Positions 12,371 to 47,244 of a DNA stretch of 64,000 bases are shown piece after piece (within the stretch, counting starts at the first letter, position 1; every line of letters begins with the position of its first letter). Below the pieces are notes generated by a model. It saw only the letters and a program-made list of their open reading frames with translations. It had not been told where the DNA came from and searched no databases. The DNA comes from Chiloscyllium plagiosum (taxonomy: Eukaryota). The translations under genes and the position numbers were made by a program. The DNA lies in the NCBI RefSeq assembly GCF_004010195.1, contig NC_057751.1, positions 16,979,585-17,043,584 on the forward strand, given 5' to 3'.

Positions 12371-12949
12371 GTTCCCCCCACACTCGGAGGCACGAAGGTA
12401 GTGGAGGGTGAAAATGAGCGCAAAGTGACCTTGTTCCGAGCAAGCGTGAACATGCCAGGAAGCCCATCCTTTGGAAATGGAGGAGGTCGCGGTGTTATTT
12501 TGAAACAAAAAAAAGCCACAAGTCACAGAAATCCCACTGTAGCGGATTCTTAACGTGGAGCTCCCCAACTGGGGAAAGCATATGGTGCAGCCTGTTTCAG
12601 AGACCACTTGTGGAGGGGACCACCTGTTCACTCTGTGACCATGAGGTTAATGCAAATACCAACAGAACAATTCATTGCCTGGCACTTAATTTAAAATGCA
12701 ATTTTAGTAGGGTGCGATTTGTGAATTTCTCAATGGATTTGCAGTGGGGTGGGAGGGCATCATCCTCCAGACTTGGCCAGTGCTCGTTTCCAAAGGTTGC
12801 AACACACATCACAAGTACTTGTTAGGAAACATATGTTGTTGTTTTTCAAATTCAGATTCAAACTGCTCCTGAATATTGCTTTCCCTTGTCGGATTGGTGC
12901 ATGCAGCTGTCGGTCTCCCCCTCTCGCTGTTGCAAACCGCAGGCATGAT

Positions 12950-14120
12950 GCTTTGGGCGGGACCTGAGGGGTGAGGGGGTGGGGGGGAGATGCCTCCCGT
13001 GGATTGGTCGCTGCGGCCGTCAGTCGAGGACGCTCACCACTCAGCGAGCGTCACCCGAACCGCCCCCCCAATTCTGATTGTGCAGGAGCGCTGTCAATCA
13101 TAGCGCACCTGATTCTGATTGGCCGGGACGTAGCCACCACCGTCTGGGGTATGACGGATTGCTTGTTGGTTATACCGCCCCTCGCTTCGAGTGAGAGCAG
13201 CCCATCAATCATCGCAGCCCGCCTTCTGATTGGAAAGGCGAGCCGTCAATCATACCCACTATTGTCCTGATTTGACGAAAGCACCGGCAGTCATCCCACC
13301 ACGCTTGTCATGGCACCGCCACTACAAGCACACCGCCCCTCACCCGATTGGACGAGCCGCACGTCAGTCAGTCGAACCGTTGCGCCTGGGTGGGCAGGCC
13401 CAGCGTCACTCGCCCCGCCTCTCGCCCGGAGTGGGCTAAACGCCCGTCCGTCAAAGGGCGCACCACTCCAATTGGCCAGCGGGGCTGTCCATCAGCTGTA
13501 AGCCCCTCCTCCCCATACAAGTATGGGACAGTAGAATGAAAGTTTTGCTGCTGGCAGCTCCGTCCAAATAATCACGCTGCGCGGGAAACCGGGGAGAGGC
13601 GGGGGGGTGGGGTTGCATAAAAAAAAAACAGAGTGGGGGAAAAAAAACCGAGGAGGGGCGGGATGAGGCCGGGAAGTACCGTCGGCGATTGGCCGTCCTC
13701 TTTCCAGGCGCTTAAACAATTTTCTCATCCGTTTTCTTTTCTCTCTCTCTAAACTTTCTTAAAAATACAAAGCGGGGGAGGTGGCGTCGAACGATTGAGG
13801 GATTGGGGGGGAAGGGGAAAAATCCGTTGACGGACGGAGGTTTGGTGGGTGGACGTGGGAAGAAGGCGGGCGGTGATTGGAGGGAAGGCCGGGTTTGAAT
13901 GAGTGAGCGGGCCGGCGATTGGTCAGCGGGCGGCGGCGGCGGCGGCGGGGTGGCCCGGATGTCGGCGCGCGCGCGCCTGTCGGTTATTGTTTGAGTGAGA
14001 GGGAGAGGGCAGTCAGTCAGAGAGAGAGAGAGAGAGAGAGGACAGCGGAACATGGTGAGTGAGTGAGTGCTTCCCTCCCGGCACCGGCACCACCCCATCC
14101 CCCTCCCCACCGGGGGTGGG
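12950..14120 (+). promoter_or_regulatory. CpG-island promoter and 5' UTR of H2AZ2 with multiple CCAAT and GC boxes
   Basis: CpG-dense. ATTGG/CCAAT near 13003, 13118, 13229, 13347, 13469, 13688, 13802, 13876, 13918; GC boxes near 13413 and 13655; (GGC)n near 13930. Confidence 0.85.
14052..14054 (+). CDS. H2AZ2: Histone H2A.Z.2 exon 1 coding part (ATG only)
   Basis: AACATG|GTGAGT at the end of a CpG island. An ATG-only first coding exon is the known H2A.Z gene structure and is in phase 0 with exon 2. Confidence 0.9.
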
Positions 14121-14148
14121 GATGTCCCGTGGACTCAAGGCCCCCCCC

Positions 14149-14440
14149 AACACCTTTCAGATTTTGTGTAGATATCTCTCCCTCCTCCTGACTATAACTA
14201 ACACCTTTCAGATTTTGTGTAGATATCTCTCCCTCCTCCTGACTATAACTAACACCTTTCAGATTTTGTGTAGATATCTCTCCCTCCTCCTGACTATAAC
14301 TAACACCTTTCAGATTCTCTCTCTCTCTCTCTCCCTCCTCCTGACTATAACTAACACCTTTCAGATTTTGTGTAGATATATCTCCCTCCTCCTGACTATA
14401 ACTAGCATAACCTTTCAGATTTTGTGTGTAGATATCTCTG
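14149..14440. repeat. 51-bp tandem repeat, about 5-6 copies, in H2AZ2 intron 1
   Basis: Unit AACACCTTTCAGATTTTGTGTAGATATCTCTCCCTCCTCCTGACTATAACT. Confidence 0.9.
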
Positions 14441-17395
14441 TCCTGATCATAACTTATCTTTCAGATTTTATATTTCCTCCTGATCATCACTATTACCATT
14501 TAGATTTTACGTACTTGTGTGCATCTATGTCTGTGTTTATGTGAAATCTTCAACCTCTTCGTGACCATAACTATCATAATTTACCAGTTGTTACGTACAA
14601 GTGTGTATGATGGTTAATATAAGATATGTTTGTGTAGAGACCCTTCCCCCGCCCCCATTTCCGATCATAAGATTATATTCTGATTTGATGTAATTTTATA
14701 TTTGTGTGCACATATGTATATGTGTGTATAAACTATGGTTTTGTGATGGTTGATATGAGAGATGTTTATGTGTGTGTGGAAAATCTTCAAACTCCCCCTT
14801 TCCCTTCATGATTATAACTAACATTAAATCTAATTGATTTATTATGAATTTTATATTTTATATGTTTGTATATGTATATAGGATGTATAGTTTGTGAGAT
14901 GTGTGTGTGCAGAAAGCACCCCTGCCCCCATCTATGCCTCTGGCCATGATAACTGTCATGATAACTATCAACTGTCATTTACATTCGTAGTATTTTATAT
15001 ACATGTGTATATGATGGTTTATAAGTGAAATGTGTATGTATCTTGTCAGTATGATGGGTTATATCTCTCCCCTGAACCATCATTCCTTCTTATTTGTTAT
15101 TTTCATCAGTGTCTCTCTCCCCCCAACCCCCTTCGTATTTATTTTCTTTGGGGAATGGTTTTGATTTTTATTTTCCATTTCTGCTTTTCCCATTCTGAAG
15201 TTCTCCTCTTGTTGGTGGTTGTTTTTTTTTCTCCCTCTCTACCCCCTTCCTCATTTATTTGCAATCCTGGCAACATGAGTTTTTTTAAAATCTGCTCTCT
15301 ATATTTCCCTCCTTTTTTGTGTCTCCATTCCCCTGCAGAGTTTCTGTTCCTCTGATGTCTCCCTCTGTCTGACCTACCTTTCTTCTCTCTGTTTAGCCCC
15401 CTCTTGCTCATTTACTCCCCTCCCTGTCTGCATCCCCCCCATCACCAAAAAAGCTCATCTTTGACATGTTTTCCGTTTATTTAATCCACTTTTTCCATAG
15501 TACTGATGGCATCTTGTTTATAATGTGCTTGTCCTAAAGGTTCACAGCTGCTGACTAAATTTGCAGTTTATCAGTTGGGTTGTCCTTTTCGTTTTGCATT
15601 TGGTGTCTATAAATAATTGAATAGTACACAATGTAAATGTTGCTTTCGTCAGAGATTATGGTCTTGTGCTCATCAGGACTGAAATGCAAGAAAAACCATC
15701 TTGGAGCTATGACATTGAAAGTTGTCCCGAAGTCTCCGTTTTATAATTCAGACAATTTTCAAGTTGTGTCTTGTTTCCTTTGAACGTCGGTGTAACTTTT
15801 AAAATACAGCAAATTGTGCCACTCAGGTTAGTTTAGTTATGAAATTGCCTTGTATTGTTTTGCTTAATCGCTGGCAAGGTCTCCTTTTAGGGAAAATCAA
15901 ATTTAAATTTAATTTCTCCTTTGCAAGGATCGATTGGAAATTTTATTTGCTTCAGCCCAGTCTCGGATCTGTAGCGTAGAGGGTTATATAAGGGTTTTCA
16001 TGATGAGTATGATTAGTTTGGACTGTTAATGTAGCTTAACATTTAAAATGGGCAGGCAGTTAAACTAAGCAATAGGAATTTATTTTCTTTGAATTAAGTT
16101 TCAAGTGCTCTGTATTTATGGATGAATTTGACCTCAGATATTCAATACCCAAAATGTGCACCGAGACAGAATGTTACCAAGTGATCTGAATTTTGTCAAA
16201 ATACCTTTATGTAGTTTTTCAGAGCTGCATTCACTTTTTGAATTCCTGAGAGATCACGTTTATTATCTTTGTTAAGTTTATATATCTGAGCCACCAAATT
16301 GAATTCCTGGACGTTGGCACTGTCCAGTTTGCAGTTTCATAGTACAAACCTTGGATCAGTTTTATTTGCAATTGTGATTGAGGGCAATGATTCCCAAAAG
16401 CAGTGGGGTGTGAGTTGAAATGTCCTGAAGTAATCATTCCCCACCCCCGAGTGCACAGGCATGCACCACCACAAACATTGGAATGGGATTATAGTGGGGC
16501 GAAACATTTGGGAAGGAAGGGTTGACATTATGTAGGTGAAGGGTGCACTTGTCTGGTTTTGGGCTGAATCACATTGATTTTATTGGTGATGTTTCAGTTG
16601 CATCTATCATCTCAGGCGGTAGCAGCAACTCAAAGTCAAGGTTTAATTGTATACTCGGGCTGGGTAATTCTCTCCTTGGTTGTCAGTATATTCTTGTCTT
16701 AAAAAAAACCTAATGCCTTATCTTGACAGTTAACAGTAGATCCAATAGAAATCTATTTTGCTTCAGATTGTTGGCTTGTTTACATATCCCATTTCAGGTT
16801 TTGATGATGCTCATGTCTGCAGCTAAGGTGTCCACGTTGCTGTGTTTTGAGGCAAATCTATGAACCCAAATGTTTTAGTTAATCTTGAGAGTTGGGCATC
16901 GATGCTAAGTAGGATTAGAAATCGTGAATTCCAGTGTGTTGCAAGTAGCCTCATTGTCTTAAAAGTTCTTTGCAGATACATTTTGTTTCCTGAATTTCTT
17001 TACTATATTTGGAAGACTGGACCAGTATCTCCAATTGTGAAGTGCCCGCAGTTGCACACTTAAAAGGTATTCATTGTACCTTGAATGAGATTTTTGAGTA
17101 ACAACTTTTAACATTGCAGTGATAAAAAAAACTTGCCTAGTCGAAATAAAAATGCAGCTGTTTATACAATTGTCTTCCTAGCTTAATTTTGACACCTAGC
17201 TGCTATTTCCACAAAAGATGTTGAACCTGTCTTGTGAGATTTCTAATGAGCTTTAAAGTGAATTTTGTCTCTTTGTTTTGTTGAAACACATACATCTAGA
17301 TTTCAAAGAAAGTTTCAACATTAAATTTACAGAATATAAATTTATAGTCTCAGACATCAATAACATGCTGGTCTAATATGGCGCTCGAATATATT

Positions 17396-18298
17396 GTAAG
17401 AGAACAGGCAGGAGGCTGGAAAAACACAGCGAGCCAGGCAGCACCAGGAGGGGGAGAAGTTGACAGTTTGGGTGTAACCCTTCATCAGGACTGGAGGTGG
17501 GTGTAGGAGGAGCTGCCAATAAAGGGGAGTGGCAGGAGCAGGGTGGTGAAGTGGAGAATAGGAAAGTCTGGTAGAGGGTTACGATCTGGTTGGTCAGTGG
17601 GATGAATGCATTTGGTTAGTGGAAGGGAAGAGGCTGAGTAGGGAGGTGGGGGGCAAGGAAGGGAGGGTATTTGAAATTGGTGAGCTCCATGTGGAGTCCT
17701 CCTGGCTATAGATGAAGTGGTGTTCCTCCAGTCTGAGGTTTGGTTCATTGTGGCAATGGAGGAGGCCACGGATAGTCATGTCAGAAGGGGAGTGGGAAGA
17801 GGAATTAAAATGGGCAGTGACTGGGAGGTCTGGTCGGCCCCTGCGGGCCCAGCTGAGATATTTGAAGAGAAGCAGGTGAACCTCTGTCTCACCTGGAAGG
17901 GCTGTTTGGGGCCTAGATGGAGGTGTGGTGTACCAGCAGGTTTTCCGGTTGCAGTGGAAGGTACCTGGGAGTTCGGGTGGGGTTGGTGGGGAGAGTGGCA
18001 CAAACCAAGGACTGTTGAAGGGAACGGTTCTTGCGGAAGGCACAGAGGAGTGGGGAGGGGAAGATGTTCTTGGAGTTGGACTTCCATGCCTCCCTGCCGC
18101 CACTGGATTCATTCCTCCCATTGACCAACTAGGATGTACCCTCTACCTGACTTCACCACCCTGCCCCCACCACCTTTTATCTGCAGCTCCCCCTGTGCCC
18201 ACCCCGTGTCCTGAAGAAGGGTTATATCCGAAACATCGACTTCTCCCCCTCCTGGTGCTGCCTGGCTTGCTGTGTTCTTCCAGCCTCCTGCCTGTCTA
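17396..18298 (-). mobile_element. Penelope-like insertion with about 190-bp inverted termini and 13-bp TSD, in H2AZ2 intron 1
   Basis: GIY-YIG remnant (PVTAHFNSSSHSPSDMTIRGLLHC). Termini are reverse complements. TSD GCTCGAATATATT (17383-17395) and GCTGGAATATATT (18299-18311). Confidence 0.85.
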
Positions 18299-18484
18299 GC
18301 TGGAATATATTAGCACTGTTTTGTGATGACCAACTGCAGACATTTCTATTGGAAGTTAAATTATAGTTTATTTTTTTGAACAACCCAGTTATATCCCTAT
18401 AAACTTATAAAAGCATAACTTTGCCATTATTCATTTCCGTGTACAAACATTTTTTGCTATATTGATTCTGTCTGTCTTTGGCAG

Positions 18485-18562
18485 GCTGGCGGGAAAGCTG
18501 GGAAGGACTCGGGAAAGGCCAAGGCGAAAGCAGTTTCCCGTTCTCAGAGAGCAGGATTACAG
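18485..18562 (+). CDS. H2AZ2: Histone H2A.Z.2 exon 2 (AGGKAGKDSGKAKAKAVSRSQRAGLQ)
   Basis: ctttggcag acceptor and CAG|gtacgg donor, 78 nt. Translation is the H2A.Z N-terminus with KAKAKA (Ala14, Z.2 type). Confidence 0.97.
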
Positions 18563-19674
18563 GTACGGTAGGTTTTGTGATCCCAGTAGTTTTCACAAGC
18601 GAGTAAAAGATGTCCTTTCAGAGCTGGGGCCAAGACTCCCAATTAATGTAGACAGTGCTAGTGAAATTAATTTAGAAGAAAACAATATCAATTTCCATAA
18701 GTGCATTTAACGTAAATGGTATTCTCAACTGACAGCCTGATTCTGATCTTTATGATGGGCTGGTTGAGGATGTTATCCCTAAAGAACCTGTTATACGATA
18801 GCATTTTAAAGAGTTGCGTCCTTATTGTACGACTCCAGTCATTTGATGGTTTCCGGTTCGGTCTTGTTTTACTAGCCACTCCTAATGCCATGAGATGTTG
18901 CCTGTCAATGGTGACTCTTCTTCCCCATACTCTTAACATTCTGTTTTTGAATGAGAATTTGCATCACGCCTGCAGTTGAATTCTGAAGCAGTCTTTCTGG
19001 AAGAAACTGAACAGAGTGCCTGAGTTTATTGACAATTTGCAGTTGCTTCATGGTGTTTTCAGTAGCTCTTGTTCGCTCAACTGATGACTGGGATATGGCT
19101 GACAGTACAGCAACTGGTCCAATTCAGTCTATCCTGTTTTGGGAGTGACATTTTCTCATTGGACAGATTTTTAGATTTCTTACTGCCATTCTGAAGGCAT
19201 TCAGTGCAGTCAGGAATATGTTGCTGCTTAATGTTAGTCTACTGAATTGGTCGGACACTGGTATCTGTCATGATATGGGCTTAAAGGGGAGAGGAAAATC
19301 AGCTGCACTTGTCCATGCAGGGCGTTTGATTAAAATATTTGCAAATGTTTTAGCTTCATACTATCTATTGCCCGTTTCTGTTGGTGTTTTAGCATGCAGG
19401 TAATCTTGTGTATTCCTTCTCCCGAGTAGTTCCAAGGTATGACTGACACTGCTTTCAGCACACCTTTTCCCAATCCCCAGTGAGGGCCATCATACAGTTT
19501 TGCTGGGCCATTTTGTTTTTTTCAAAAATATACCATATTCAAAGAGATATTTAAATCTGGTTACTAAAGCAGTTCGGTCCTGTAGAGTAGCGTGTGGAGA
19601 AACCAACAAATATTGGAGTTTGACTTCATCCAGCAAACAAACCCAAAGCACTTCTTATTTACATCACATACTAT

Positions 19675-21520
19675 TTAGAGTCATAGGGATGGACAGCACG
19701 GAAACAGACCTGTCCATGCTGACCCAGATATCCCAACCCAATCCAGTCCCACCTGCCAGCACCTGGCCCATATCCCTCCAAACCCTTCCTATTCATATAC
19801 ACATCCAAATGTTGCAATTGTACCAGCCTCCAGCACATCCTCTGGCAGCTCATTCCATACATGTACCACCCTCTGTGTGAAAAAGTTGTCCCTTAGGTCT
19901 CTTTTCTACCTTTCCCCTCTCACCCTAAACCTATGCCCTCTAGTTCTGGACTCCCCCACCCCAGGGAAAAGACCTTGTCTATTTACCCTATCCATGCCCC
20001 TCATAATTTTGTAAACTTCTATAAGGTCACCCCTCAGCCTCCGACGCTCCAGGGAAAACAGCCCCAGCCTGTTCAGCCTCTCCCTGTAGTTCAGTTCCTC
20101 CAACCCTGGCAACATCCTTGTAAATCTTTTCTGAACCCTTTCAAGTTTCACAACATCTTTCTGATAGGAAGGAGACCAGNNNNNNNNNNNNNNNNNNNNN
20201 NNNNNNNNNNNNNNNNNNNNNNNNNNNNNNNNNNNNNNNNNNTGTATAAGTCCTGCAAAGATTTGCTTTCTCAAAATGCAGCACCTCGCATTTATCTGAA
20301 TTAAACTCCATCTGCCAATCCTCAGCCCATTGGCCCATCTGGTCCAGATCCTGTTGTAATCTGAGGTAACCCTCTTCGCTGTCCACTACACCTCCAATTT
20401 TGGTGTCATCTGCAAACTTATTAACTGTATCTCTTGCTTGCATCTAAGTCATTTATGTAAATGAAAAAAGCAGAGGGAGCAACACCGATCCTTGTGGCAC
20501 TCCACTGGTCACAGGCCTCCAGTCTGAAAAACAACCCTTCACCACCACCCTCTGTCTTCTACCTTTGAGCCAGTTCTGTATCCAAATGGCTAGTTCTCCC
20601 TGTATTCCATGAGATCTAACCTTGTTAATCAGTCTCCCATGGGGAACCTTGTCGAACACCTTACTGAAGTCCATATAGATCACATCTACTGCTCTGCCCT
20701 CATCAATCTTCTTTGTTACTTCTTCAAAAAAAACTCAATCAAGTTTGTGAGACATGATTTCCCACGCACAAGGCCATGTTGACTATCCCTAATCAGTCTT
20801 TGCCTTTCCAAATATATGTACATCCTGTCCCTCAGGATTCCCTCCAACAACTTGCCTACCACCATGGTCAGGTTCACCAGTCTATAGTTCCCTGGCTTGT
20901 CCTTCGCACTCCTCTTGAACAGTGGCACCACGTTTGTCAACCTCCAGTCTTCCAGCACCTCACCTGTGATTATCGATGATACAAATAAATATCTGAGCAA
21001 GAGGCCCAGCAATCACGTCTCTAGCTTCCCACAGAGTTCTCTGGTACACCTGATCAGGTCCTGGGGATTTATCCACCTTTACCCGTTTCAAGACATCCAA
21101 CACTTCCTCCTCTGTAATCTGGACATTTTGCAAGATGTCACGATCTATTTCCCTGCAGTCTATATCTTCCATATCCTTTTCCACAGTAAATACTGATGTA
21201 AAATACTAGTTTAGTATTGCCCCCATTTTCTGTGGCTCCACACAAAGGCCGCCTTGCTGATCGTTGAGGAGCCCTATTCGCTCCCTAGTTACCCTTTTTG
21301 TCCTTAATATATTTGTACAAACCCTTTGGATTCTCTTTAATCCAATTGCCAAAGCTATCTCATGTCCCCTTTTTGCCCTCCTGATTTCCCTCTTAAGTAT
21401 ACTCCTACTGCCTTTATACTCTTCTAAGGATTCACTCGATCTCTCCTGTCAGCCCTGACAGGAATATACTTTCTCTGGATTCTCATTATCTCATTTCTGA
21501 AGGCTTCCCATTTTCCAGCC
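19675..21520 (-). mobile_element. CR1/HER1 LINE ORF2 (RT) fragment spanning a small N-gap
   Basis: VDKSPGPDQ, VVPLFK..DKPGNYR, IYMDFSKVFDKVPH, VTSGVPQGSVL, KFADDTKIGG; frameshifted. Confidence 0.93.
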
Positions 21521-21529
21521 TACATACAA

Positions 21530-21750
21530 AAATAGAAATTGCTGGAAACAACTCAGCCGGTCTGGCAGCATCAGTGGAGAGAAATCGGAGTTAACGTTTT
21601 TAGGGTTGAGTGACCTTTCCTCCGAGCTCAGGGGGGTTCTAAGGGAGGGTCAAACGACCTGAAATGTTAGCTCTGATTTCTCACCACAGATGTTGCCAGG
21701 CCTGCTCCAGCAGTTTTTATGTTTGCCTCTGATTTACAGCATCCGCAGTT
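21530..21750. mobile_element. Palindromic Penelope-derived mini-element (older, degenerate)
   Basis: GGTCTGGCAGCATCAGTGGAGAGAAATCGGAGTTAAC is inverted as GTTAGCTCTGATTTCTCACCACAGATGTTGCCAGGCC. Confidence 0.65.
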
Positions 21751-21754
21751 AGAA

Positions 21755-22410
21755 CATAGAGCAGTACAGGCCCTTCGGCTCAATTTGTTGTGCCGACCTT
21801 TTATCCTACTTGAAAAATTAACCACGGGCCCTTCATTGTACTGTCATCCATGTGCCTATTTAACAGTCATGGAAGTCTCTATCTATCTACTCTGTCTATT
21901 CCTCTCATCATTTTGCACACCTCTGTCAGGTCACCTCTCATCCTTCTTCACTTCAGTTAGAAAAGCCCTAGCTCCCTCAATCTTTCTTCATCATTCATGC
22001 CCTCCAGTCCAGGCAACATCCTGGTAAATCTCCTCCGCACCCTTTTTAAAGCTTCCACATCCTTCCTATAATGAGGCGACCAGAACAGTGTGGTCTAACG
22101 GCTTTATAACACTGTAGCATAATCTTATGACTGTTGAACTCTGTCCCCCTGCTAACGAAAGCCAAAACACCATACGCCACCTTAACAACCCTATCAACTT
22201 GGGAGGCAACTTTGAGGGATCTGTGAACATGGACCGCAAGATTCCTCTGTTCCTCCACACTGCCAAGAATCCTGTCTTTAACCCTGTATTCTGCAGTCAA
22301 ATCCGACCTTCCAAAATGAATCACTTCCACTTTTCCAGGTTGAACTTCTGCCGATTCTCAGCCCAGCTCTGCATCCTGTCAATGTCTGGTTTCAACCTCC
22401 CACAGCCCTC
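21755..22410 (-). mobile_element. CR1 LINE fragment
   Basis: EVIHFGRS...VHVHRSLKVASQVDRVVK. Confidence 0.85.
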
Positions 22411-22713
22411 TGTTTTGGGTTTTATGTACTACTTATACACATTCGAGGCACCGGGAAGGTTCAGTAACTGAATGACTCCCACTGTACTTTAGTAGAAAGA
22501 CCTTGGCAGCTGGTGTCCCAAGCTTTAAGACATCCCTCAGCACATCGACCTGGGCCTTGTAGTTCTGCTGGGCTGTTGTCCTAGGTGGTTATCCAGGCTT
22601 GGACCACTTTGTCAGCCTTCTGTTCCACTGAGCACAGCACAGTTGTGGATCTGTGCTTCACAATGGAGGTTACTATCCCTGGAGAAGCAATCACCTGTCC
22701 AGTGTGTTCTGGT

Positions 22714-22902
22714 TGAGAGTGCGGTGCTGGAAAAGCACGGCCGGTCAGGCAGCGTCCGAGGGGCAAGAAAACCGAAGTTTCGGGCAAAAGCCCTCTGCCA
22801 GGGCTTTAATTTCCTGCTCCTTGGATGCTGCCTGATCTGCTGTGCTTTTCCAGCGCCACTCTCTCGACTCTGATCTCCAGCATCTGCAGGCCTCACTTTC
22901 GC
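22714..22902. mobile_element. Palindromic Penelope-derived mini-element with 15-bp TSD
   Basis: Inverted arms. TSD CCAGTGTGTTCTGGT (22699-22713) and CCAATGTGTTCTGGT (22903-22917). Confidence 0.85.
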
Positions 22903-23612
22903 CCAATGTGTTCTGGTGCCCAGACCAGCTGAAATTCCTGATATGACTGCTGTGCCCTTCAGGATTTAATCAACTCAGTCAGCAGGATGGTGAGGCCGTT
23001 TAAAGATATGTCATGCTCTTCTGGAAGTAATATTCATCTTGGACTTCCCTTGATATGATTTGAATGGAAGCCATAACTTTCTGCAGTCTGAGAGAGCTCA
23101 AGGGCTACTCCATTCACTCCTTGCTGTTGGGTTTGTGAGGTTAGCCAGTCCCCACATTCAAGGGGAATGCTAGACGCACCCTGACCCTTGCTGCACATGT
23201 GCAGATTTCAGAGCCTCAGCTAATGCAGTGCTTCATGATCACTCCCCTGAAAATGGATTGACTGTCCCTGGCAAGGTCTTGAAAGGTGCCAACGAATCAA
23301 ACTTGAGTCGGGGTGGGAAGACCTTCTGAGTTTGTCACATTTTCCTCTTCTGGTCTCTGCGTCTTGATGTCCGTAACACTTTGTTCATCTGGCAACAAGT
23401 GTGGTGACCACAGAAGCTGAGAGGTCAGGTTTGTAGAACAGCAAAGTGGCTGAGATTGGCTGGCTAACTTGCATAAAATCATAAAACCGACATCTCAGCT
23501 TCTTTCTCAATAACCCTAGTGTGTATGTTAAGAGTGAAGAGGAGAGGATCCTCCTGTGCACTAACTGTTAAATGCTATGCAAGTGGCAGTTGACATGGAC
23601 GTATGTTAGTGA

Positions 23613-24308
23613 CTTTAGATTAGATTCCCTACCGTGTGGAAACAGGCCCTTCGGCCCAATCAGTCCACACCGACCCTCCGAACAGTAACCCACCCAAACC
23701 CATTTCCCTCTGACTAAAGCACCTAACACTAATGTAGCACGGCCAATCCACCCTAACCTGCACATCCCTGAGCACTATGGGTAATGTAGCATGGCCAATC
23801 CACCCTAACCTGCACATCCCTGAGCACTATGGGTAATTTAGCATGGCCAATCCACCCTAACCTGCACATCCCTGGGCACTGTGGGTAATTTAGCACGGCC
23901 AATCCACCCTAACCTGCACATCCCTGAGCACTGTGGGTAATTTAGCATGGCCTATCCACCCTAACCTGCGCATCTTTGTAACTGTGGGAGGAAACCAGAG
24001 CACCTGGAGGAAACCCACGCAGACACAGGGAGAATGTGCAAACTCCACACAGTCACCCAANNNNNNNNNNNNNNNGGCCAATCCACCCTAACCTGCACAT
24101 CCCTGAGCACAATGGGTAATTTAGCATGGCCTATCCACCCTAACCTGCACATCCCTGAACACTGTGGGAGGAAACCAGAGCACCTGGAGGAAACCCACGC
24201 AGACACAGGGAGAATGTGCAAACTCCACACAGTCACCCAAGGTTGGAATCGAACCGGGGTCCCTGGCGCTGTGAAGCAGCAGTGCTAACCACTGAGCCAC
24301 CATGCCGT
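23613..24308 (-). mobile_element. HE1-type SINE with about 5 internal units; part duplicated across a 15-N gap
   Basis: (TAGAT)n tail at the left, tRNA head at the right. The sequence at 23980-24060 is repeated at 24160-24240. Confidence 0.85.
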
Positions 24309-24537
24309 CCTTGTTTTAGTTTTGGTTGTTCTATCAATCAAATTCCTAATTTGCTCAAGTCTGTTTGTTTGGGATTGCTTAGAAATCTAGAGAATAGAAG
24401 CTCGAGTGGGACGTTTGGCCCCAAGGACACTATTAACCACGTTGTATGTAATGTGTGAGGTTGTGAAGAAAGGGGTCAGAAGGTAGTGAGTGTATTAACA
24501 GCTGCAGAATTCTTGAAGGCTGTTTAATGTTAACACT

Positions 24538-24554
24538 GCCACTAGATGGTGCTG
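24538..24554 (+). promoter_or_regulatory. Candidate CTCF site
   Basis: GCCACTAGATGGTGCTG resembles the CTCF core. Motif match only. Confidence 0.45.
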
Positions 24555-24852
24555 CAACTGCACGTATACAGACACACACTCACACTCACTCTTTCTCATA
24601 TTCAACACACACACACACACACACTCTTGTTGTGCAACATCTCTTCAAAATGCCAGATTTACAAGCAAATGTGTGGATGTAAATGCTGAATGACAGTGGT
24701 CCCAGCGTTGTACCTTCTGGAACACCATATCCAATCTTTAGCCAGTCTGCGCAGTCCCCCTGTGGCTGGTGGAGGAGGTGGTATGAGCGGAAATCTGATT
24801 TGTGTTTTTTTTCCTCTCCAGTTTCCCATTCCATTCAGTCAAGTCAAATTCA

Positions 24853-25352
24853 NNNNNNNNNNNNNNNNNNNNNNNNNNNNNNNNNNNNNNNNNNNNNNNN
24901 NNNNNNNNNNNNNNNNNNNNNNNNNNNNNNNNNNNNNNNNNNNNNNNNNNNNNNNNNNNNNNNNNNNNNNNNNNNNNNNNNNNNNNNNNNNNNNNNNNNN
25001 NNNNNNNNNNNNNNNNNNNNNNNNNNNNNNNNNNNNNNNNNNNNNNNNNNNNNNNNNNNNNNNNNNNNNNNNNNNNNNNNNNNNNNNNNNNNNNNNNNNN
25101 NNNNNNNNNNNNNNNNNNNNNNNNNNNNNNNNNNNNNNNNNNNNNNNNNNNNNNNNNNNNNNNNNNNNNNNNNNNNNNNNNNNNNNNNNNNNNNNNNNNN
25201 NNNNNNNNNNNNNNNNNNNNNNNNNNNNNNNNNNNNNNNNNNNNNNNNNNNNNNNNNNNNNNNNNNNNNNNNNNNNNNNNNNNNNNNNNNNNNNNNNNNN
25301 NNNNNNNNNNNNNNNNNNNNNNNNNNNNNNNNNNNNNNNNNNNNNNNNNNNN
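24853..25352. other. Assembly gap of exactly 500 N
   Basis: N run counted from line coordinates. The round size suggests a scaffolding join of unknown true size. Confidence 0.97.
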
Positions 25353-26454
25353 TGTGAGAGAGAGTGTGTGAGAGAGAGTGTGTGCACGTGTGTACGAGAG
25401 TGTGTGTACATGAGAGAGAATGTGAAAGGGATTTGGCGTCCCTTTGACGTGGAGGCAATGCCAACAAGAAGGAAGCCAAGGCAGGATCAGCGCAGTTTTA
25501 AAGGCCGACGTTGCAGCTTTCCCATGCGGAATGCGGGTTTCACTCCCTTAATTCCCGTTGCCACCAGGAACTTGGCGAGGGTATGTCCGCTGTTGCATTG
25601 ACAGATCCCTCCTTCCTCTGCCCAGCTTTTTAAAGCCTAACTCAGGTTTAAGGGTTGAGCCTGCTTTCGAATGGTAAAGGCTGCCGCCCGTGGATGGAGT
25701 GCTGACGAATGATCAGAAGGCAATTTATTACCAGGAGGAGAGTGTTTTTAGTTTGTAGAATAGTGTTTGCATGGATATTCTAAGGACCACGGCATCTTAC
25801 CTTCCTGTGTTGTCTTGGCTCCTGAGCAGGGAACAGCTTGTGGATGTGAACGATACTGAAAGAAACCTTTGGACTGTTGGAAGGGGAAGTGGCATCGCTC
25901 ACCAGTAAAATACCCGAAGCAAATCAGTTTTATTTTCTCTGGCAGGGGTGGTTGTCAGCTGTGGATTTGACCAGCAACTAAGAGACTTTGCAGTTAATGT
26001 ACCAGTGTCTCGTGCACAGAGGTGAATCGAGCCTGGAGGAGGGGCATTGAGAAACAGCAAATCGGGAAACTAGCTTCCAATGAAATGTGTGGCCGGACGT
26101 GTCAGTGAATGAGTCAATAATAATGCCAGCACCATCTCTTTGCAATACTCTGTCCTTTAACACATTCATTCTAAGTTATGCCACTGATAAACCATTTATT
26201 GAGCACTTGATGAATATAAAGTCTATAAGCAAACTGCTCCAATTAACACTCGTCAACTATGCAATGATGCATGGTGTGATTTATCTATATCATGATTTAT
26301 TTTAGAGTTTGGAATTTGAACTAGTGACACATGGGCTTTGGACTGTATACAATAAAGGGTTTTATGATTACCTTGTCAGTTTTGTTTTCTGGAGCCGTGA
26401 ATCTTTTTGGAAATGGGCGTGAGAGAAACTCCTCAGGTAATGGTAGGAATTTGT

Positions 26455-26916
26455 CATAGTCATAGAGATGTACAATACAGAAACAGACTCTTCGGTCCAA
26501 CTTGTCCAATCCTAAAATAACTGACCTAATCTTGTGCCATTTGCCCGCACTTGGCCCGTATCCCTCTTGAGGCGAGAGTGTGGTGCTGGAAAAGCACAGC
26601 AGGAGACAGCATCTGAGGAGCAGGAAAATCGACATCTCCATCAAAGGATCAGGAAACCTCCCTATTCATATACCCATCCAAATGTTGCCATTGTCCCAGC
26701 CTCCACCACTTCCTCTGGCAGCTCATTCCATACACGCACCACCCTCTGCATGAAAACGTTGCCCCTTAGGTCTCTTTCCCTTCTCACCTTTAACCCTTCA
26801 GACCTTTATTGGTCAGAGTATTGAGTACAGGAGTTGGGAGGTCATGTTGCGGCTGGACAAGACATTGGTTTGGCCACTGTTGGAATACTGCGTGCAATTC
26901 TGGTCTCCTTCCTATC
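26455..26916. mobile_element. CR1 fragments in both orientations with a nested PLE terminal fragment
   Basis: CR1 tail on minus, then LRLDKTLVWPLLEYCVQFWSPSY on plus up to the N-gap at 26917-27340. Confidence 0.75.
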
Positions 26917-27340
26917 NNNNNNNNNNNNNNNNNNNNNNNNNNNNNNNNNNNNNNNNNNNNNNNNNNNNNNNNNNNNNNNNNNNNNNNNNNNNNNNNNNNN
27001 NNNNNNNNNNNNNNNNNNNNNNNNNNNNNNNNNNNNNNNNNNNNNNNNNNNNNNNNNNNNNNNNNNNNNNNNNNNNNNNNNNNNNNNNNNNNNNNNNNNN
27101 NNNNNNNNNNNNNNNNNNNNNNNNNNNNNNNNNNNNNNNNNNNNNNNNNNNNNNNNNNNNNNNNNNNNNNNNNNNNNNNNNNNNNNNNNNNNNNNNNNNN
27201 NNNNNNNNNNNNNNNNNNNNNNNNNNNNNNNNNNNNNNNNNNNNNNNNNNNNNNNNNNNNNNNNNNNNNNNNNNNNNNNNNNNNNNNNNNNNNNNNNNNN
27301 NNNNNNNNNNNNNNNNNNNNNNNNNNNNNNNNNNNNNNNA

Positions 27341-27850
27341 CAAACCACTATAAATGCCGGAGGAAAGGTCACAGAAGCGCTTCACAGGAGGCTCCCAAGC
27401 CCTGAGGATGTCACCGAGACAGGGGACGAAACATCTGCAACACACATTCCCAGCTCGGCGAGCAGAACCACAACAACAGGCTTGAGTTATAAATAAAGTC
27501 TGAACCCTCTCCAGCTCGATACGATCCTTTCCGTAAGGGAGGAACCAGAACTGGACACGGTGCTCCAGAAGGGGCCTCTAATGTCCTGTACAACCTCAAC
27601 ATGACATCCCAACTCCTGTACTCCAAGTCCTGAGCAACGAAGGCCAAAACATCTTCTTAACCACCCCACGTGTGATGCAAACGTCAAAGAATGATGTCCC
27701 ACTATATCTAGGTCCTTGTGTTTGACAACACCACCATTAATTGTATAAGCCCTACCCTCGTCGGACAGGGCATTTACCCAGATTGAACGCCACCTGCCGT
27801 TTTTCAGCCAGTTGGCAGAGATCCCTTCCTAACCGTAGAAAACCCTCTCT
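27341..27850. mobile_element. Penelope terminal repeat (27341-27490, +) with hammerhead-like motif, then a CR1 fragment (-)
   Basis: CTGAGGATGTCACC..GGGGACGAAACATC near 27402; AQDLEYRSWDVMLRLYRTL. Confidence 0.7.
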
Positions 27851-28021
27851 GCCATGTCACCTCACTTGCAGTCGCCCGCAGAACTTCAACATTCTGCTTC
27901 TGGCTTGTGTGACCAAGGAAAGATTTACGTGCCGAAGTTTAACGCTTGCACGTTTAATTCACAAGATGGAGGGATTCACTCTGCAAAACGAATAGAGAGA
28001 CTGGGCTACATTCTTGGAGGA

Positions 28022-28660
28022 TGAGATGGAGACGTACAACACGGAAACAGACCCTTCGGTCCAACCCGACCCCGATATCCCAACCCGATCTAGTCCCACC
28101 TGCCAGCACCCGGCCCATATCCCTCCAAACCCTTCCTATTCATATACCCAGCCAAATGCCTCTTAAATGTTGCAACTGTACCAGCCTCCACCACATCCTC
28201 TGGCAGCTCATTCCATACACGTACCACCCTCTGTGTGAAAAGGTTGCCCCTTAGGTTTAGGGTGAGAGGGGAAAGATATAAACGAGACCTATGCCCCTCT
28301 AGTTCTGGAGTCCCCGAGCTCAGGGAAAAGACCTTGTCTATTTACCCTATCATAATTTTGTAAACCTCTCTAAGGTCACCCCTCAGCCTCCGACGCTCCA
28401 GGGAAAACAGCCCCAGCCTGTTCAGCCTCTCCCTGTACCCCTTAGGTCTCGTTTATATCTTTCCCCTCTCACCCTAAACCTATGCCCCTCTAGTTCTGGA
28501 CTCCCCGAGCTCAGGGAAAAGACCTTGTCTATTTACCCTATCCATGATTTTATAAACCTCTCTAAGGTCACCCCTCAGCCTCCGACGCTCCAGGGAAAAC
28601 AGCCCCAGCCTGTTCAGCCTCTCCCTGTAGCTCAAACCCTCCAGCCCAGGCAACCGCATC
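28022..28660 (-). mobile_element. CR1 3' fragment with internal tandem duplication and 40-bp micro-inversion
   Basis: 28252-28437 is duplicated at about 28443-28628. See findings. Confidence 0.85.
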
Positions 28661-29034
28661 CAAATACAAAATTCACGCCATGTTAGATTTCAAACATCGC
28701 TATGAGGACAGAGCAAGGGGCAGAACGGGAACGCACCTGGCGTATAGCAACCACGGGAGTTCCTTGGGATCTCACAGCTCAACAACGTGAGCCCATTCGA
28801 GAAAGATGACAAGAATAAACTACGGTGTCCCACCCAGTCAAATACAGGGCTTAAAACATCGCTGTGCTCCAAAGTGATCAGTCAGCGGCCGGGGATATTG
28901 GTACCCTCGAACTGAAGAAAAAGCTGTTCGGCTAAATTCAGGAAGAATGGAACTTTATGGGTTAGACCATAAAGCCTAGACGGTCAACAAAGCTATGCGT
29001 GCTTTCCGGAGAGAGAGCAGAAATAAATGCAGTA

Positions 29035-29530
29035 CTGATTGCCCCATTACAAGGAGGACGTGGAAGTATTGGGAAAAGGTGCAGAGATTTGCCAGGATGT
29101 TGCCTGGTCTGGAGGGAAGGTCTTAGGGGGAAAGGCTGAAAGACGTGGGTCTGGTCTCATTGGAAAGAAGGCGGCCAAGAGGAGGGATTTGATCGGGACC
29201 TACAAGATGATCAGAGGATTAGATAGGGTAGACAGGGAGTCTTTTCCCGAGGATGATGACAGCGGCTTGGACGAGGGGGCATAACTACAAATTGAGGGGT
29301 TTAGATTCAAGACAGATGTCAGAGGCAGGTTCTTTATGCAGAGAGTGGTAAGGGCGTGGAATGCCCTACCTGCTAATGTAGTCAACTCAGCCACATCAGG
29401 GAGATTTAAACAATCCTTGGATAAGCTCACGGACGATGATGGGATAGTGTAGGGGGATGGGCTTAGATTAGTTCACAGGTTGACGCAACATCGAGGGCTG
29501 AAGGGTCTGTCCTGTGCTGAAATGTTCTAT
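29035..29530 (+). mobile_element. CR1 3' fragment
   Basis: PHYKEDVEVL...DLIGTYKMIRGLDRVD. Confidence 0.85.
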
Positions 29531-29879
29531 TAAAGACAAACATCATGTGCTCGATTCCGCAGTTGTGCTCATCAGAGATAACGTCACCGTTCAGGAGAGA
29601 TTTTCGATCAGGACCTTTTAAAATAGAAATCCCTGCTTTGTGGACATTGAGGCGGTTTCCCCTTTACCTCACAAGCCTTCCTTTCAACGTTTCTGCCTCC
29701 AGTGTCCCACGCACACTTGCCCATCAGTCTTCAGTTCTAAGTCGCTGTTTCCAAAAGGAGTTATTTTCAGATTATACCCTGCAGGAAATCATTCCAATAA
29801 ACAGCTTTCACGTACTACACGAGGGAGAGATTCGGAGTTGGGAAAAGCTAGATTTCATGGGATTCAGCCAACTTGAATA

Positions 29880-30356
29880 AAGTGTAGCCTTTATTTCAGT
29901 CATCCAGTCATTTCAAGTTGAGGCATCCTGGTATTTCTTATTAGGAAAGATCAGCACACTCGTTGTTATTGAGCAGTCAAGAACATCATCCCCGAGTAAC
30001 TACTTCTAAACATCCCCAGGAAGCACTGCTAATGTTTGAAAGGACACACTGTGGAGACATGATTTTTAAAAAATGGTTTTATGAACGGTTTTATTGTATA
30101 AAACACACTTGCGTAATCTAATTGTTGACAAACTGCTGTATGTTCTAGTTATATTTTCATACAGCTTTATATCTAAACCATAGGACATACAAACAGGTCT
30201 TTCGGATTATATCGAACACTAAAGTCATCTCCTAAAACTCTTCCCATTTTTATTTTAACTATTTTTAAAAAAAATATGCCAAGTATCCCCAGGTTTCTCC
30301 TGTCCAAATTACAGTACGACAGTAGGGAGGAAGAGGGTAGATTCAAAGCTGGATTT
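29880..30356 (-). other. H2AZ2: Probable H2AZ2 3' UTR with candidate AATAAA signals
   Basis: AT-rich and repeat-free. TTTATT on + (AATAAA on -) near 30250, 30090 and 29890. Confidence 0.6.
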
Positions 30357-30418
30357 TTATGCTGTCTTTTGCTGTCCCTTCTTCCCAATCAGAGACTTGT
30401 GGATGTGGGGAATCACAC
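30357..30418 (-). CDS. H2AZ2: Histone H2A.Z.2 exon 5 coding part ([20 protein letters not shown])
   Basis: Minus-strand cttgcag acceptor and TAA stop. C-terminal KTA (Ala127) is Z.2 type. Total CDS 3+78+114+130+62 = 387 nt = 128 aa plus stop. Confidence 0.97.
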
Positions 30419-31516
30419 CTGCAAGAGGAAGTGAAACAGACACGGTATAATAAATTCACAGCTTAGAATAAGTGTACTGTTTCAGGTCAAATGTTATCTC
30501 CTCCCCTGCTCGATCATTCTGGGAGCCGGGACAGTTCCTCACACATTGGAAACAACAACCTACAGCAATTAAAACTGAACATTATTCTTCCAATCAGCTC
30601 CAAACTAAAATAACCCATAACCTAATTGCTCCCAATATTCCTAGATAACTGATCAAACATTACCTATTGACTATTTAGAATTGTTGCATTGTGAACACTG
30701 ATTGTTTAAATATGATTTACCATCTCGCTGAGAGTAGTTTCTATATTTCTACTATTATTATCAGTAACATTCTCAAGAGGAAAATAGCTCGCAAGTTATT
30801 CAGGAGAAGGCATATCGGAGAACTTCCAATCCAAAATACCTAAGCAAAACATGATTGAAACAAGAAATGAAGTTTTAAAAACCAAAAGTCCTGCCTCTGA
30901 AGCTCCTCTGTGATCTATTATGACCATCGTGAATACCAGAGAAACAGCACGGCAGACTGGTATTGCCAGGAATGGAGGGACACACTCGATAACGAGTGAT
31001 GTATGACTGATAGTGAGGCTGGGCCGGAAACAGAGACAAGGATCAAAAGTTTTGTGCAGCTCGGAAAGAGTTAATATTTCCGATTCTTAGCCACAGGTAG
31101 AGTTCTGCACCATCTATTGCAAGGAGTTTAGGCAATATCATCAGCAGGCCAAGAATGGGCATTAAAAGAGGACATACCTCATACTGAGTCCATAAGGGAT
31201 AGCAATCTGGACTAAGGGCTCATGATTTCCCCTCACAGTAAGGCTGGCTAGCAGTAACCAGTTCAAAACAAATAATAAAAAACCAGCAAATGACAGAGCT
31301 TCCTTGTTCTGACAGCACAGCTCTGTAAAGTGCAGGGATTCACCAGCTAATCACGAACAAAGAGGCTCGCCATTTTCCTCCTCCAATTTGTGACCTTGCG
31401 ATGGTGTGTGGAGTAATGCTTCATTAAATTACATCTTGCCACCAAACGGACGACTGCTAGGGCAGCGGGTTCAAAGGCCCGTTCCTCAGAGCAGCCATTC
31501 ATTTAAATTAATCGTC

Positions 31517-31558
<42 letters not shown>

Positions 31559-32253
31559 GCAGAACTGGAATGCTCTGCCTGTCATCTGCAGCAGTTCAGT
31601 GACGTACACCAAGTCTGGTACCAGGGCTCACTGAAATCAGAAACTTAGAAGGAAGGAAGGAAAAGCTGAATTATCATTGCATGATCTTGCATCTCAGCAG
31701 GTAAAGCTTGCAAGGTGTCAGCTAGCACGGTTTAAGGGGAAAAAAAGTGTAATAATCTTTAAAAAACATTATTACTAAAAACTGCTCAACCCTGGGCTAC
31801 ACTGAAACCATTCACAACTTAACCATCAGCACAATTAACATTCACTCCCAATAGCAGACTGGCAATTAAGTGCTGGTAACATAAATTTGGTAAGATAATA
31901 CTATCTGTAAATGAAAACTAGAACATCTAGGAAACTCAAAATGCTAAAAGTGTGAGCGAGCGAAAGGAAACCTCTGATTTCCAACATTTAGAGGAAAAAA
32001 AAGTGTTTTTTCCTAACTTGAACAGTGGACACTAAACAAGAACTATTAACAAACCCAAGCTCCCTTTTCTTAACGACCTGAACCCAACTGTTAAAATGCT
32101 GCTCCAATAACACAATTATTAAACATCAAAACCACGTAATCGCTCAAAGACCAAACAGTCTACTTGGGATCAGGCAATTCATCTCAGGCCGAGCCAGGCA
32201 AATCAGGAGTTACGTGCAAAACTGCTACGAGAGAGGACAAGTTTAACACATAC

Positions 32254-32383
32254 CCCCACCAGCAATGGTTGCCTTGATCAGCGAATCCAGCTCCTCATCA
32301 CCTCGGATGGCCAACTGTAAGTGACGTGGCGTGATGCGCTTTACTTTCAGGTCCTTTGACGCATTGCCTGCCAACTCCAACAC
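32254..32383 (-). CDS. H2AZ2: Histone H2A.Z.2 exon 4 ([43 protein letters not shown]+G)
   Basis: Minus-strand ccgtag acceptor and G|gtatg donor, 130 nt, ends in phase 1. Translated by hand. Confidence 0.97.
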
Positions 32384-33129
32384 CTACGGAGCATAAGGTA
32401 GCGCAGCATTTCAAAAGCACGACAGCATCTTCAAACAGCAGAAAGCCAAAACGTTCCCACCTGTCCAAAGTCGGAATTTCAACAAGCAGCCGGTGCTTTT
32501 TGTGTGGTGCAACGCTGCTTATGTTGCTAAACATTTAAAAAAAAAGCCAATGCTCGCTCCGGGAAGAACAAAGATGGGAAATAAATTTGGCACCCAACAT
32601 CTTCAACTCCACATGCCCTTATATTCTCTGTGTTCAAATGAGCCCTACATCAGAGCTAGAACGTTCTGTCTTTCTACCAGTCTGTATAACCTTGCCCCCT
32701 GGAAGCATCCTGCTCAGTCCCCCTCCACGGTTTCAGCCCTTTAGCCAGTCCCTTTAGCTCCCTACTCTAGCTTTGCCATCTATATCTAGTTCGCTCAGAA
32801 CCTGTTGAAAGCAGACGGGATCCTATAGGCACACAAGGTGAACAGGGGCTCAGGTTCAAACCCCTTCAAGGCTCCGAGAAGCCGACTGCTTTGGCAGTGG
32901 TCTCTCTCTGTACATCTCAATCACTGCCTTGAGCTTCACCTCACCAGCTTCACTACTGTTGGTCACCGAGCTCCTGCCTTGTAGCCTTTTCTGTCACAGT
33001 ATTTCTGTTTTGCCTCGTGCTACCCAGTGCCGGGAGATTATTGGATTCCCCGATCCTCCCGTTTATCCCTGCTCAATGCTGCTTTTGTCACAAATCCTGC
33101 AAGTCAGAAGACTACTGTCACCGTTTAAG

Positions 33130-34600
33130 ATAGTATGGTGTGCAATTCCCAGTCTCCCTCCGATAGGAAGGATGTTGAAAGATTGACAAGGATGTTGCCA
33201 GGGTCGGAGGGCTTGAGCTACAGGGAGAGGCTGAACAGGCCGGAGCTGTTTTCCCTGGAGTGTCGGAGGGTGAGGGGCGACCTTATAGAGGTTTACAAAA
33301 TCATGAGGGGGGCATGGATAGGATATATAGATATAGATGAAGGTACTAAAAGTACTATTAGCAAATTTGCTGATGACATAAAGCTGGGTGGCAGGGTGAA
33401 ATGTGAGGAGGATGTTCGGAGAATACAGGGTGACCTGAACAGGTTAGGTGAGTGGCCAGATGCATGGCAGATGCAGTTTAATGTGGATAAATGTGTGGTT
33501 ATCTACTTTGGCAAGAACAGGAAGGCAGATTACTACCTAAATGGAGTCAAGTTAGGTAAAGGGGCAGTACAACAAGATCTAGGTGTTTTTGTACATCAGT
33601 CAATGAAAGCAAGCATGTAGGTACAGCAGGCCGTGAAGGCGGCTAATACCATGCTGGCCTTCATAACAAGAGGAATAGAGTATAGGAGCAAAGAGGTGCT
33701 TCTGCAGCTGTACAGGGCCCTGGTGAGACCACACCTGGAATATTGTGTGCAGTTCTGGTCTCCAAATTTGAGGAAAGACATTCTGGCTATTGAGGGAGTG
33801 CAGCGTAGGTTCACGAGGTCAATTCCTGGAATGGCAGGATTACCTTACACTGAAAGACTGGAGCGACTGGGCTTATATACCCTTGAGTTTAGAAGCCTGA
33901 GAGGGATCTGATTGAGACATATAAAGATTATTAAAAGGATTGGACACTCTGGAGGCAGGAAACATGCTTCCGCTGATGGGTCAGTCCCAAACCAGAGGAC
34001 ACAGTTTAAAAATAAGGGGTCGGCCACTTCGAACACAGCTGACGGGAAACTTCGCCCAGAGAGTGCTGGGAGCGTGTAATGCTCTGCCCCAGAAGGCTGT
34101 AGAGGCCAAGTCTCTGGATACTTTCAAGAAAGAGTTGGATAGAGCTCTTAAAGATAGTGGAATTAAGGGTTAGTGGAGATAAGGCAGGAACAGGATACTG
34201 ATTGAGGATGATCAGCCATGATCATAATGAATGGTAGTGCTGGTTTGAAGGGCAGAATGGTCTACTCCTGTACCTATTGTCTATTGTCTTTTCCCTGGGG
34301 TGGGGGAACTAGAGGGGCATAGGTTTAGGGTTAGAGGGAAAAAGATATGAGAGACCCAAGAGGCAACTTTTTCACAAAGGGTGGTACGGGTATGGAACGA
34401 GTTGCCAGAGAAAGTGGTGGAGGCTGGTACAATGACAACATTTAAAAGGCATCTGGATGGGTACATGAATAGGAAGGGTTTGGAGGGATATGGGCCAAGT
34501 GCTGGCAAATGGGACTAGATTTGTTTAGGATATCTGGTTGCCATGGACAAGTTGGAGTGAAGGGTCTGTTTCCATGCTGTACACCTCTCTGACTCTCCTT
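33130..34600 (+). mobile_element. Nested CR1 LINE fragments in H2AZ2 intron 3
   Basis: KFADDIKLGG...WQMQFNVDKC; LYRALVRPHLEYCVQFWSP; two distinct 3' tails. Confidence 0.9.
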
Positions 34601-34808
34601 GGAGAAAGTGAGGACTGCAGATGCTGGGGATCAGAGTTGAGAGCGTGGTGCTGGAAAAGCGCAGCAGGTCAGGCAGCATCCGAGGAGCAGGATAATCAAC
34701 GTTTCGGGCATAAGCCCTTCCTGATGAAGGCCTTGTGCCCGAAACATCATTTCTTCTGCTCCTCGGATGCTGCCGGACCTGCTGTGCTTTTCCAGCACCA
34801 CACTCTCT
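34601..34808. mobile_element. Palindromic Penelope-derived mini-element with central CTGATGA hammerhead-like core
   Basis: GAGAAAGTGAGGACTGCAGATGCTGG tail, arms of about 80 bp, centre CTGATGAAGGCCTTGTGCCCGAAACATC. Confidence 0.85.
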
Positions 34809-34987
34809 ATGACTCCCTTTGTCTATGGAGATTGCCAGAGGTGCTTAGTGTGGAGAAAGATCAGACTAATTTACATTAAAGTAGTCAGGGGCGTTATCAA
34901 CAAACGAAGTATGGGTGGTTACCTTGTTTTCACTAACAGACTTCTCATACTAATGGAAGGAAACAGAAAGCCTCCACCAGGACTCAC

Positions 34988-35101
34988 CTCAGCAGTGAGA
35001 TACTCAAGGATAGCTGCACTGTACACTGCAGCTGTAGCACCCACCCGTCCATGGCTAGTGGTACGAGTCTTCAAATGCCTATGAATACGACCTACAGGAA
35101 A
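34988..35101 (-). CDS. H2AZ2: Histone H2A.Z.2 exon 3 ([38 protein letters not shown])
   Basis: Minus-strand ttcttccag acceptor and GAG|gtgagt donor, 114 nt. Thr38 (LKTRTT) is Z.2 type. Confidence 0.97.
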
Positions 35102-38917: not shown

Positions 38918-38939
38918 TGAATCACTTAACGTTACTCAA

Positions 38940-47096: not shown

Positions 47097-47244
47097 TGCG
47101 ATCTGAACGGCTTCCTGGAGTTTTGCCCTCAGGGTGCACATGACACTTCCCTTTCCCTTGTTTATAACTGACACCGAGACCAACAACACACACAGCAGCT
47201 GCTGACTCGGATCTGGGCGGACAGGAGGTCAGTGTTTCCCCCGG

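Follow-up and report, generated by a model that had tools for sequence, protein, structure and literature searches.

How can a conserved histone gene be encoded on both strands of one chromosome? The question is raised by H2A.Z.2 in the genome assembly of the bamboo shark Chiloscyllium plagiosum (GCF_004010195.1). In a stretch of 64,000 nucleotides (contig NC_057751.1, positions 16,979,585 to 17,043,584 of the forward strand), which was analysed as a whole and is called the window here, exons 1-2 lie on the plus strand and exons 3-5 on the minus strand. This split is very probably an artefact and not a real feature of the locus. Judging from the sequence, the gene is likely to be collinear and cis-spliced with an intron 2 of 9.4 kb, and its present layout would stem from two false joins at a rebuilt repeat together with a scaffold that was placed backwards.

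A first-pass annotation of the window had described five exons with canonical splice sites that, read from opposite strands, give a complete H2A.Z.2 of 128 amino acids, with no second copy of any exon in the window. Both observations held. All introns are of the GT-AG type, and the coding parts of 3, 78, 114, 130 and 62 nt form a frame of 387 nt, i.e. 128 codons and a stop. The parts of the gene are the following.

14052..14054, plus strand: coding part of exon 1, an ATG followed by a GT donor
18485..18562, plus strand: exon 2, residues 2-27, with Ala14 of the H2A.Z.2 type; single copy in the genome
18563..24852, plus strand: 5′ part of intron 2, ending at the cut end of a 61,000-bp piece and continued by base 1 of the scaffold C99252
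35102..36223, minus strand: 3′ part of intron 2, the first ~110 bases of which extend an old repeat that ends at C99252:1317
34988..35101, minus strand: exon 3, with Thr38 of the H2A.Z.2 type; single copy in the genome
32254..32383, minus strand: exon 4, part of the GT-AG chain
30357..30418, minus strand: exon 5, ending in QQKTA and a stop, with Ala127 of the H2A.Z.2 type
25353..30356, minus strand: 3′ untranslated region and downstream flank, with AATAAA starting at 30254, 30095 and 29895
12801..14300, plus strand: CpG island, presumably the promoter region of H2A.Z.2; observed/expected CpG (o/e) up to 1.16

The region 12900-14100 contains 10 CCAAT/ATTGG motifs and 7 GC boxes. At the start of intron 1, a 51-bp minisatellite occupies 14149-14439.

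Do the two halves belong to one gene? The translations of exon 2 and exon 3 are letter-identical to PDB chains named Histone H2A.V (6m4d_C, 3waa_C), and H2A.Z.2 residues occur in both halves, namely Ala14 (KAKAKA, not KAKTKA), Thr38 and Ala127. Positions 14, 38 and 127 of H2A.Z and the KAKAKA motif are given as marks of Z.2 in one part of PMC7290884, and a section of PMC8567233 names A127 as an H2A.Z.2 residue. In the whole 3.56-Gb genome, the DNA of exon 2 and that of exon 3 have one match each. The exon 4 protein has 74 genome matches, two of them at H2A.Z level: the H2A.Z.2 locus and a paralog on C32. The latter is of the H2A.Z.1 type (Thr14, Ser38, Val127; end QQKTV), and its exons 2-5 are ordered on one strand. 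It is a compact gene, exons 2-5 falling within ~2.1 kb (C32:38458992-38460997, minus); its exon 1 was not found. Dozens of further H2A-like matches (~66% to exon 4) are spread across 6.8 Mb of C50 (loci L010-L032) and are likely to represent the replication-dependent histone cluster.

It had been suggested that the halves derive from two paralogs or are remnants of two haplotypes. The two copies of an overlap described below may indeed stem from two alleles. Nevertheless, exons 2 and 3 each occur once in the genome, both halves are of the Z.2 type, and the C32 paralog stands apart with its own complete set of exons 2-5; therefore the halves are those of one gene, and an origin from two sources is hardly credible.

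What, then, lies between them? The block carrying exons 3-5 is bounded by two gaps of exactly 500 N, as first annotated, and the sequence starting at 25353 and at 47745 is TG-rich, also as described. Neither the exon chain nor these features of the block are at chance level.

24853..25352, no strand: scaffolding gap, 500 N, bridged by no listed contig
47245..47744, no strand: second scaffolding gap, a run of 500 N

Contigs of four public runs (X1, X3, X5, X8; three studies) were aligned to 24630-26440. None of the public runs listed for the locus is recorded as RNA, which is neutral with regard to expression. Among the contig joints listed for these runs, none connects 24852 with 25353. In two of the four runs, X1 and X5, contigs match 24630-24852 and then extend by ~1,266 and ~1,209 letters, respectively. 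The 30 letters shown of the X5 overhang have a single match in the 3.56 Gb, namely bases 1-30 of the unplaced scaffold C99252, and the overhang motif is absent from the window at up to 3 mismatches. An X8 contig carries 755 other letters before its match to 24815-24852, beside a T run; these letters may belong to an intron 2 allele with an insertion or to a different locus.

C99252 is exactly 28,000 bp long, the piece ending at 24852 exactly 61,000 bp, and the two abut base for base. Within ±300 kb (664 kb), 11 of 70 N runs measure exactly 500 N, and three of the ten pieces that they delimit have lengths divisible by 1,000. According to one part of PMC9292758, 3d-dna and SALSA2 insert spacers of 500 N by default, Hi-C scaffolding is more prone to inversions and misjoins, and it does not orient short sequences reliably. 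From the start of the X5 overhang at base 1 of C99252, the exact lengths of 61,000 and 28,000 bp and the 500-N spacers, we infer that the exon 1-2 piece and C99252 were once a single input scaffold, which was cut at a bin edge and C99252 set aside. Further pieces of exactly 35,000 and 59,000 bp lie between 500-N gaps on C42, 156-121 kb and 121-62 kb upstream of the window, and genes on them may have been cut likewise.

These results change the picture given by the first-pass annotation, which had proposed that the block 25353-47244 was misoriented by scaffolding, that 24852 adjoins 47244, and that intron 2 spans 18 kb or more. The artefact itself is supported by the 500-N gaps, the round-kilobase pieces and the missing bridge from 24852 to 25353. 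The predicted adjacency is not: 24852 continues into C99252, and the halves are linked by an overlap within the block, at 36922-36426. The caveat that no sequence overlap confirms a join of 24852 with 47244 was justified, as the 12 gap-flanking ends (1.5 kb each) share repeats only. Rather than at least 18 kb, intron 2 most likely measures ~9.4 kb.

The linking sequence, termed overlap R, is part of a dispersed repeat resembling a long terminal repeat (LTR).

36426..36922, minus strand: overlap R, linking the two gene halves in sense
36225..36922, no strand: whole copy of the LTR-like repeat, ~700 bp; other members are 82-87% alike

C99252:1318-1814 matches window 36922-36426 (minus) at 490 of 497 positions. 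The window copy is whole and runs to exon 3 in sense, and the copy in C99252 ends at base 1814. The flanks before and after R have one genome occurrence each. Since the two R copies agree at 490 of 497 positions and other copies of the family are only 82-87% alike, they are likely one locus seen twice. The repeat resembles an LTR in its length, its shared ends and the short duplications flanking other copies.

A second, older repeat points to the same connection. The C99252 sequence just before the LTR-like repeat aligns to all 25 copies of this older repeat, and in 23 of the 25 the window sequence just after the LTR-like repeat finds its best match -2 to +10 bases from the end of the first half. 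The LTR-like repeat thus appears to split one older repeat between the two gene halves, which is supportive but not independent evidence. On the opposite side, the window flank above 36922 continues into the older repeat in only 1 of 130 copies. Earlier tests for an interrupted repeat had too few copies. The most likely ancestral order is C99252:1-1317, the repeat and exon 3, and intron 2 would therefore measure 9,428 bp.

How could the assembly have departed from this order? The true path would run from exon 2 to window 24852, through C99252:1-1317 and the LTR-like repeat to exons 3, 4 and 5, with normal cis-splicing of the ~9,428-bp intron. The draft may have broken at the LTR-like repeat, which would have been assembled twice, once from each side and probably from different alleles. 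The copy reached from exon 2 would then have been attached to a high-copy repeat that bears a satellite (C99252 from 1815), and the other copy to unrelated sequence (from window 36923 on). Finally, Hi-C editing would have cut out C99252 and placed the 21.9-kb scaffold with exons 3-5 next to the first piece, turned the wrong way round with respect to the gene. As the N-free joins probably arose within the input scaffolds, the true intron would not be restored by a flip of the block between the two gaps. The sequence from 36923 on is referred to as part P.

36923..47244, no strand: part P, a mosaic with a truncated piece of a long interspersed nuclear element (LINE) at its start; likely not part of the gene

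The excess of T over A in the sense strand is 0.18 in intron 1, 0.11 in the first piece of intron 2, 0.15 in C99252:1-1184, 0.13 before exon 3 and 0.17 in intron 4. In P (36923-46100) it is 0.03. The GC content of 36923-46100 (0.525) is close to that of 47745-64000 (0.519), and the introns range from 0.41 to 0.48. Because 36923-47244 looks unlike an H2A.Z.2 intron in both GC content and strand skew, turning the whole block is the less convincing form of the artefact.

Several points weigh against the collinear path through C99252. The skew is a weak test, as it is also low in intron 3 (0.03). X3 has no depth before the gap, the X8 match is limited to 24815-24852, the overhang letters are shown for X5 and not for X1, and the contig joints are those seen among the listed matches. 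With seven differences, the R copies diverge somewhat more than expected from the allelic rate of 20 in 3,470 (P=0.03 if counted as 7 events, 0.16 as 5). The 25 copies of the older repeat are related, having been seeded from the copy that was best for both flanks; this seed was the single passer among 33 copies in the first test and also the best match to the C99252 flank alone. Only 16 of the 25 beat the 99th percentile of shuffled sequence, and in the first, unseeded set 1 of 33 did. Cut-out debris by itself is no proof of an assembly error, as stated in a portion of PMC11514472. Moreover, the joins that we call false, 36922/36923 and C99252 1814/1815, contain no N, the X1 and X5 overhangs stop before R, and a real insertion or a real inversion would leave the same local junctions.

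If the two junctions were real, what would they join? From base 1815, C99252 enters a long high-copy unit at a mid-point, with ~9,000-10,000 candidate places in the genome that are 85-96% alike. The best copies lie on C8, C5, C7, C11 and unplaced contigs, and in none of 29 fetched copies does R precede the entry point. The unit and the 10-kb array of a ~60-bp satellite that follows it lie in L060:1815-10000, L061 and L062, and the far end of C99252 falls within a repeat that continues alike in 19 of 19 copies. This continuation was found at none of the 22 piece ends within ±300 kb, and since no nearby piece end continues C99252, the block 25353-47244 is not the rest of its scaffold. The spacing that the old repeat has in the high-copy unit was suspected to match the length of R, but the offset is about 1,050 and the match is not real.

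On the other side of R, P starts with the LINE piece, which we take to be of the CR1 type and which joins R through ~6 bases of microhomology. The target-site duplication of the LTR-like repeat is ambiguous, the C99252 flank being a slightly better fit than P. Further along, 39341-40472 recurs in the middle of the unplaced contig C85712 (L136:2907-4040) at 99% identity, including 660 bp at 100%, but neither flank is shared. Finding two duplicates of this kind in a single 22-kb scaffold suggests that gaps were filled or pieces joined wrongly. Among the top 40 candidates, no near-identical second copy of 25430-26440 or 40473-43300 was found, and a duplicate search with 47097-64000 was swamped by repeats and did not return its own position. 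A match of 38973-39340 to 53145-53513, considered as a link, was dismissed as a young repeat family. Near the end of the block lies a 35-bp minisatellite of 29 copies with 93% matches (46108-47096).

With these observations, a large insertion can be weighed. Here the whole block 25353-47244 would have been flipped by scaffolding and the gene would be intact and collinear, but both junctions would be real, with C99252 from 1815, further unplaced sequence and P lying between direct 497-bp copies in an intron 2 of at least 46 kb. Alternatively, the two junctions might belong to two different insertion alleles. The lack of N at both junctions fits this explanation, as does the dispersal over many chromosomes of the unit after 1814, which could be mobile, and orientation is unreliable in a block bounded by 500-N gaps. 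However, P has neither the skew of an intron nor a GC content different from that of the downstream piece and is itself a mosaic, the high-copy unit is entered in mid-element, and the end of C99252 does not run into 47244 read backwards. On balance we consider such an insertion unlikely.

The same junctions could mark a real inversion, in which staggered breaks in intron 2 turned exons 3-5 and left a 497-bp inverted duplication at both ends. This would amount to a broken H2A.Z.2 allele, probably carried alongside a normal one, and thus to a null allele of a conserved histone variant. The order and orientation as assembled (first piece, C99252, block on plus) are those expected, the duplication at the two ends is inverted and near-identical (497 bp with 7 differences), the junctions lack N, and P fits the next piece in its present orientation. 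Yet the far-side flanks, which should be former neighbours, are unrelated (P flank followed by C99252 from 1815: 1 of 130 copies), and the end of C99252 leads neither to 25353 nor to any of the 22 nearby ends, unplaced remainders being outside that search. The R copies differ at 7 sites, whereas a recent duplication would have produced identical copies. Every exon and splice site is intact, and no second copy of either flank was found. Taken together, these points make a real inversion quite improbable.

Could an opposite-strand gene nevertheless be functional? A plus-strand transcript of exons 1-2 would have to be trans-spliced to a separately started minus-strand transcript of exons 3-5. The halves are intact and in phase, dispersed repeats common to both intron parts could pair in the RNA (11 matches), and P contains weak CpG-rich patches (o/e up to 0.86). 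Against this stand the continuous cis path through C99252 and the sense skew that is continuous along it. In addition, a sequence scan of 35102-36922 revealed neither a CpG island nor a GC box, the repeat matches are ordinary family members, there is a single set of 3′ exons instead of many alternatives, and a real inversion would be required first. Such a layout is therefore extremely improbable, and we assign an equally slight chance to an old inversion, its 497-bp ends since diverged at 7 sites, in which obligatory trans-splicing keeps the gene intact. A simple inversion allele that is not trans-spliced is more probable than this combination. Trans-splicing in vertebrates is described as infrequent and prone to artefacts in part of PMC4824033, and a literature search on H2AFV with trans-splicing and on H2A.Z gene structure in cartilaginous fish, supplements being outside its scope, returned nothing relevant. 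If true, obligatory trans-splicing of a vertebrate core histone gene would be a major surprise.

The surroundings of the gene are as follows. About 50 kb upstream (C42), a PurA-family gene shares both piece and strand with exons 1-2. It is PURB-like, an intact single open reading frame (ORF) of 305 amino acids that starts 49 bases past a 500-N gap (L039:3902-4819), and its protein is identical to the recorded Pur-beta-like protein of Chiloscyllium plagiosum. In human, PURB is likewise located upstream of H2AZ2 and points the same way. Cyclophilin was uninformative as a synteny marker, with its nearest match ~430 kb upstream. A Pfam scan of 150 of the 155 listed repeat-free ORFs in 25353-64000 gave no family over the cut-off, although short exons would escape it. 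Searches with exon 4 and exon 3-frame proteins for contigs of the bamboo shark or related sharks yielded nothing usable. The segment 59501-61100 is CpG-rich (o/e up to 1.13) and of CA/CG-rich low complexity, with no Pfam exon near. Beyond the window, ~43-48 kb past its end, a 5-kb array of a 50-bp unit with ~99.7% identity (L047:2572-7585) reflects either a very recent expansion or a gap-filling artefact.

As biology, the locus is ordinary, an H2A.Z.2 gene beside PURB, and the practical value of the analysis lies in correcting the assembly. The missing 1.3 kb of intron 2 correspond to C99252:1-1317, and gene models built on the present chromosome would truncate H2A.Z.2. More generally, split genes near 500-N gaps in this assembly can stem from joins inside scaffolds, so that flipping a block is not always the repair.

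Compared with vertebrate H2A.Z.2 (H2AZ2 or H2AFV, histone H2A.V), the shark gene shares Ala14, Thr38, Ala127, the five exons and the polyadenylation signals. The proteins show no difference in the parts compared, and the gene differs only in the assembled orientation of exons 3-5. Inversions through staggered breaks leave inverted duplications at both breakpoints, as known from work on Drosophila, and an inverted duplication of ~0.5 kb at both ends of a turned segment is also what we observe. Here, however, the far-side flanks are unrelated, the inner path misses 25353, and the divergence of the copies is roughly that of alleles. The locus as assembled resembles Drosophila mod(mdg4) in that a single protein is encoded by 5′ exons on one strand and 3′ exons on the other. 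In mod(mdg4), as set out in part of PMC6237743, more than 30 3′ exons serve as alternatives and have promoters of their own, and the last common intron contains a terminator. In the shark locus, by contrast, there is a single set of 3′ exons, exon 3 is not preceded by a promoter-like island, and a cis path runs via C99252. The locus also resembles scaffolding artefacts of the 3d-dna or SALSA2 type: its gaps are uniformly of 500 N, pieces end at whole kilobases, a scaffold that was cut out continues the chromosome without a missing base, and a short scaffold is turned the wrong way. It departs from a plain Hi-C artefact in that the root cause is likely older, namely two N-free joins at a duplicated repeat inside the input scaffolds.

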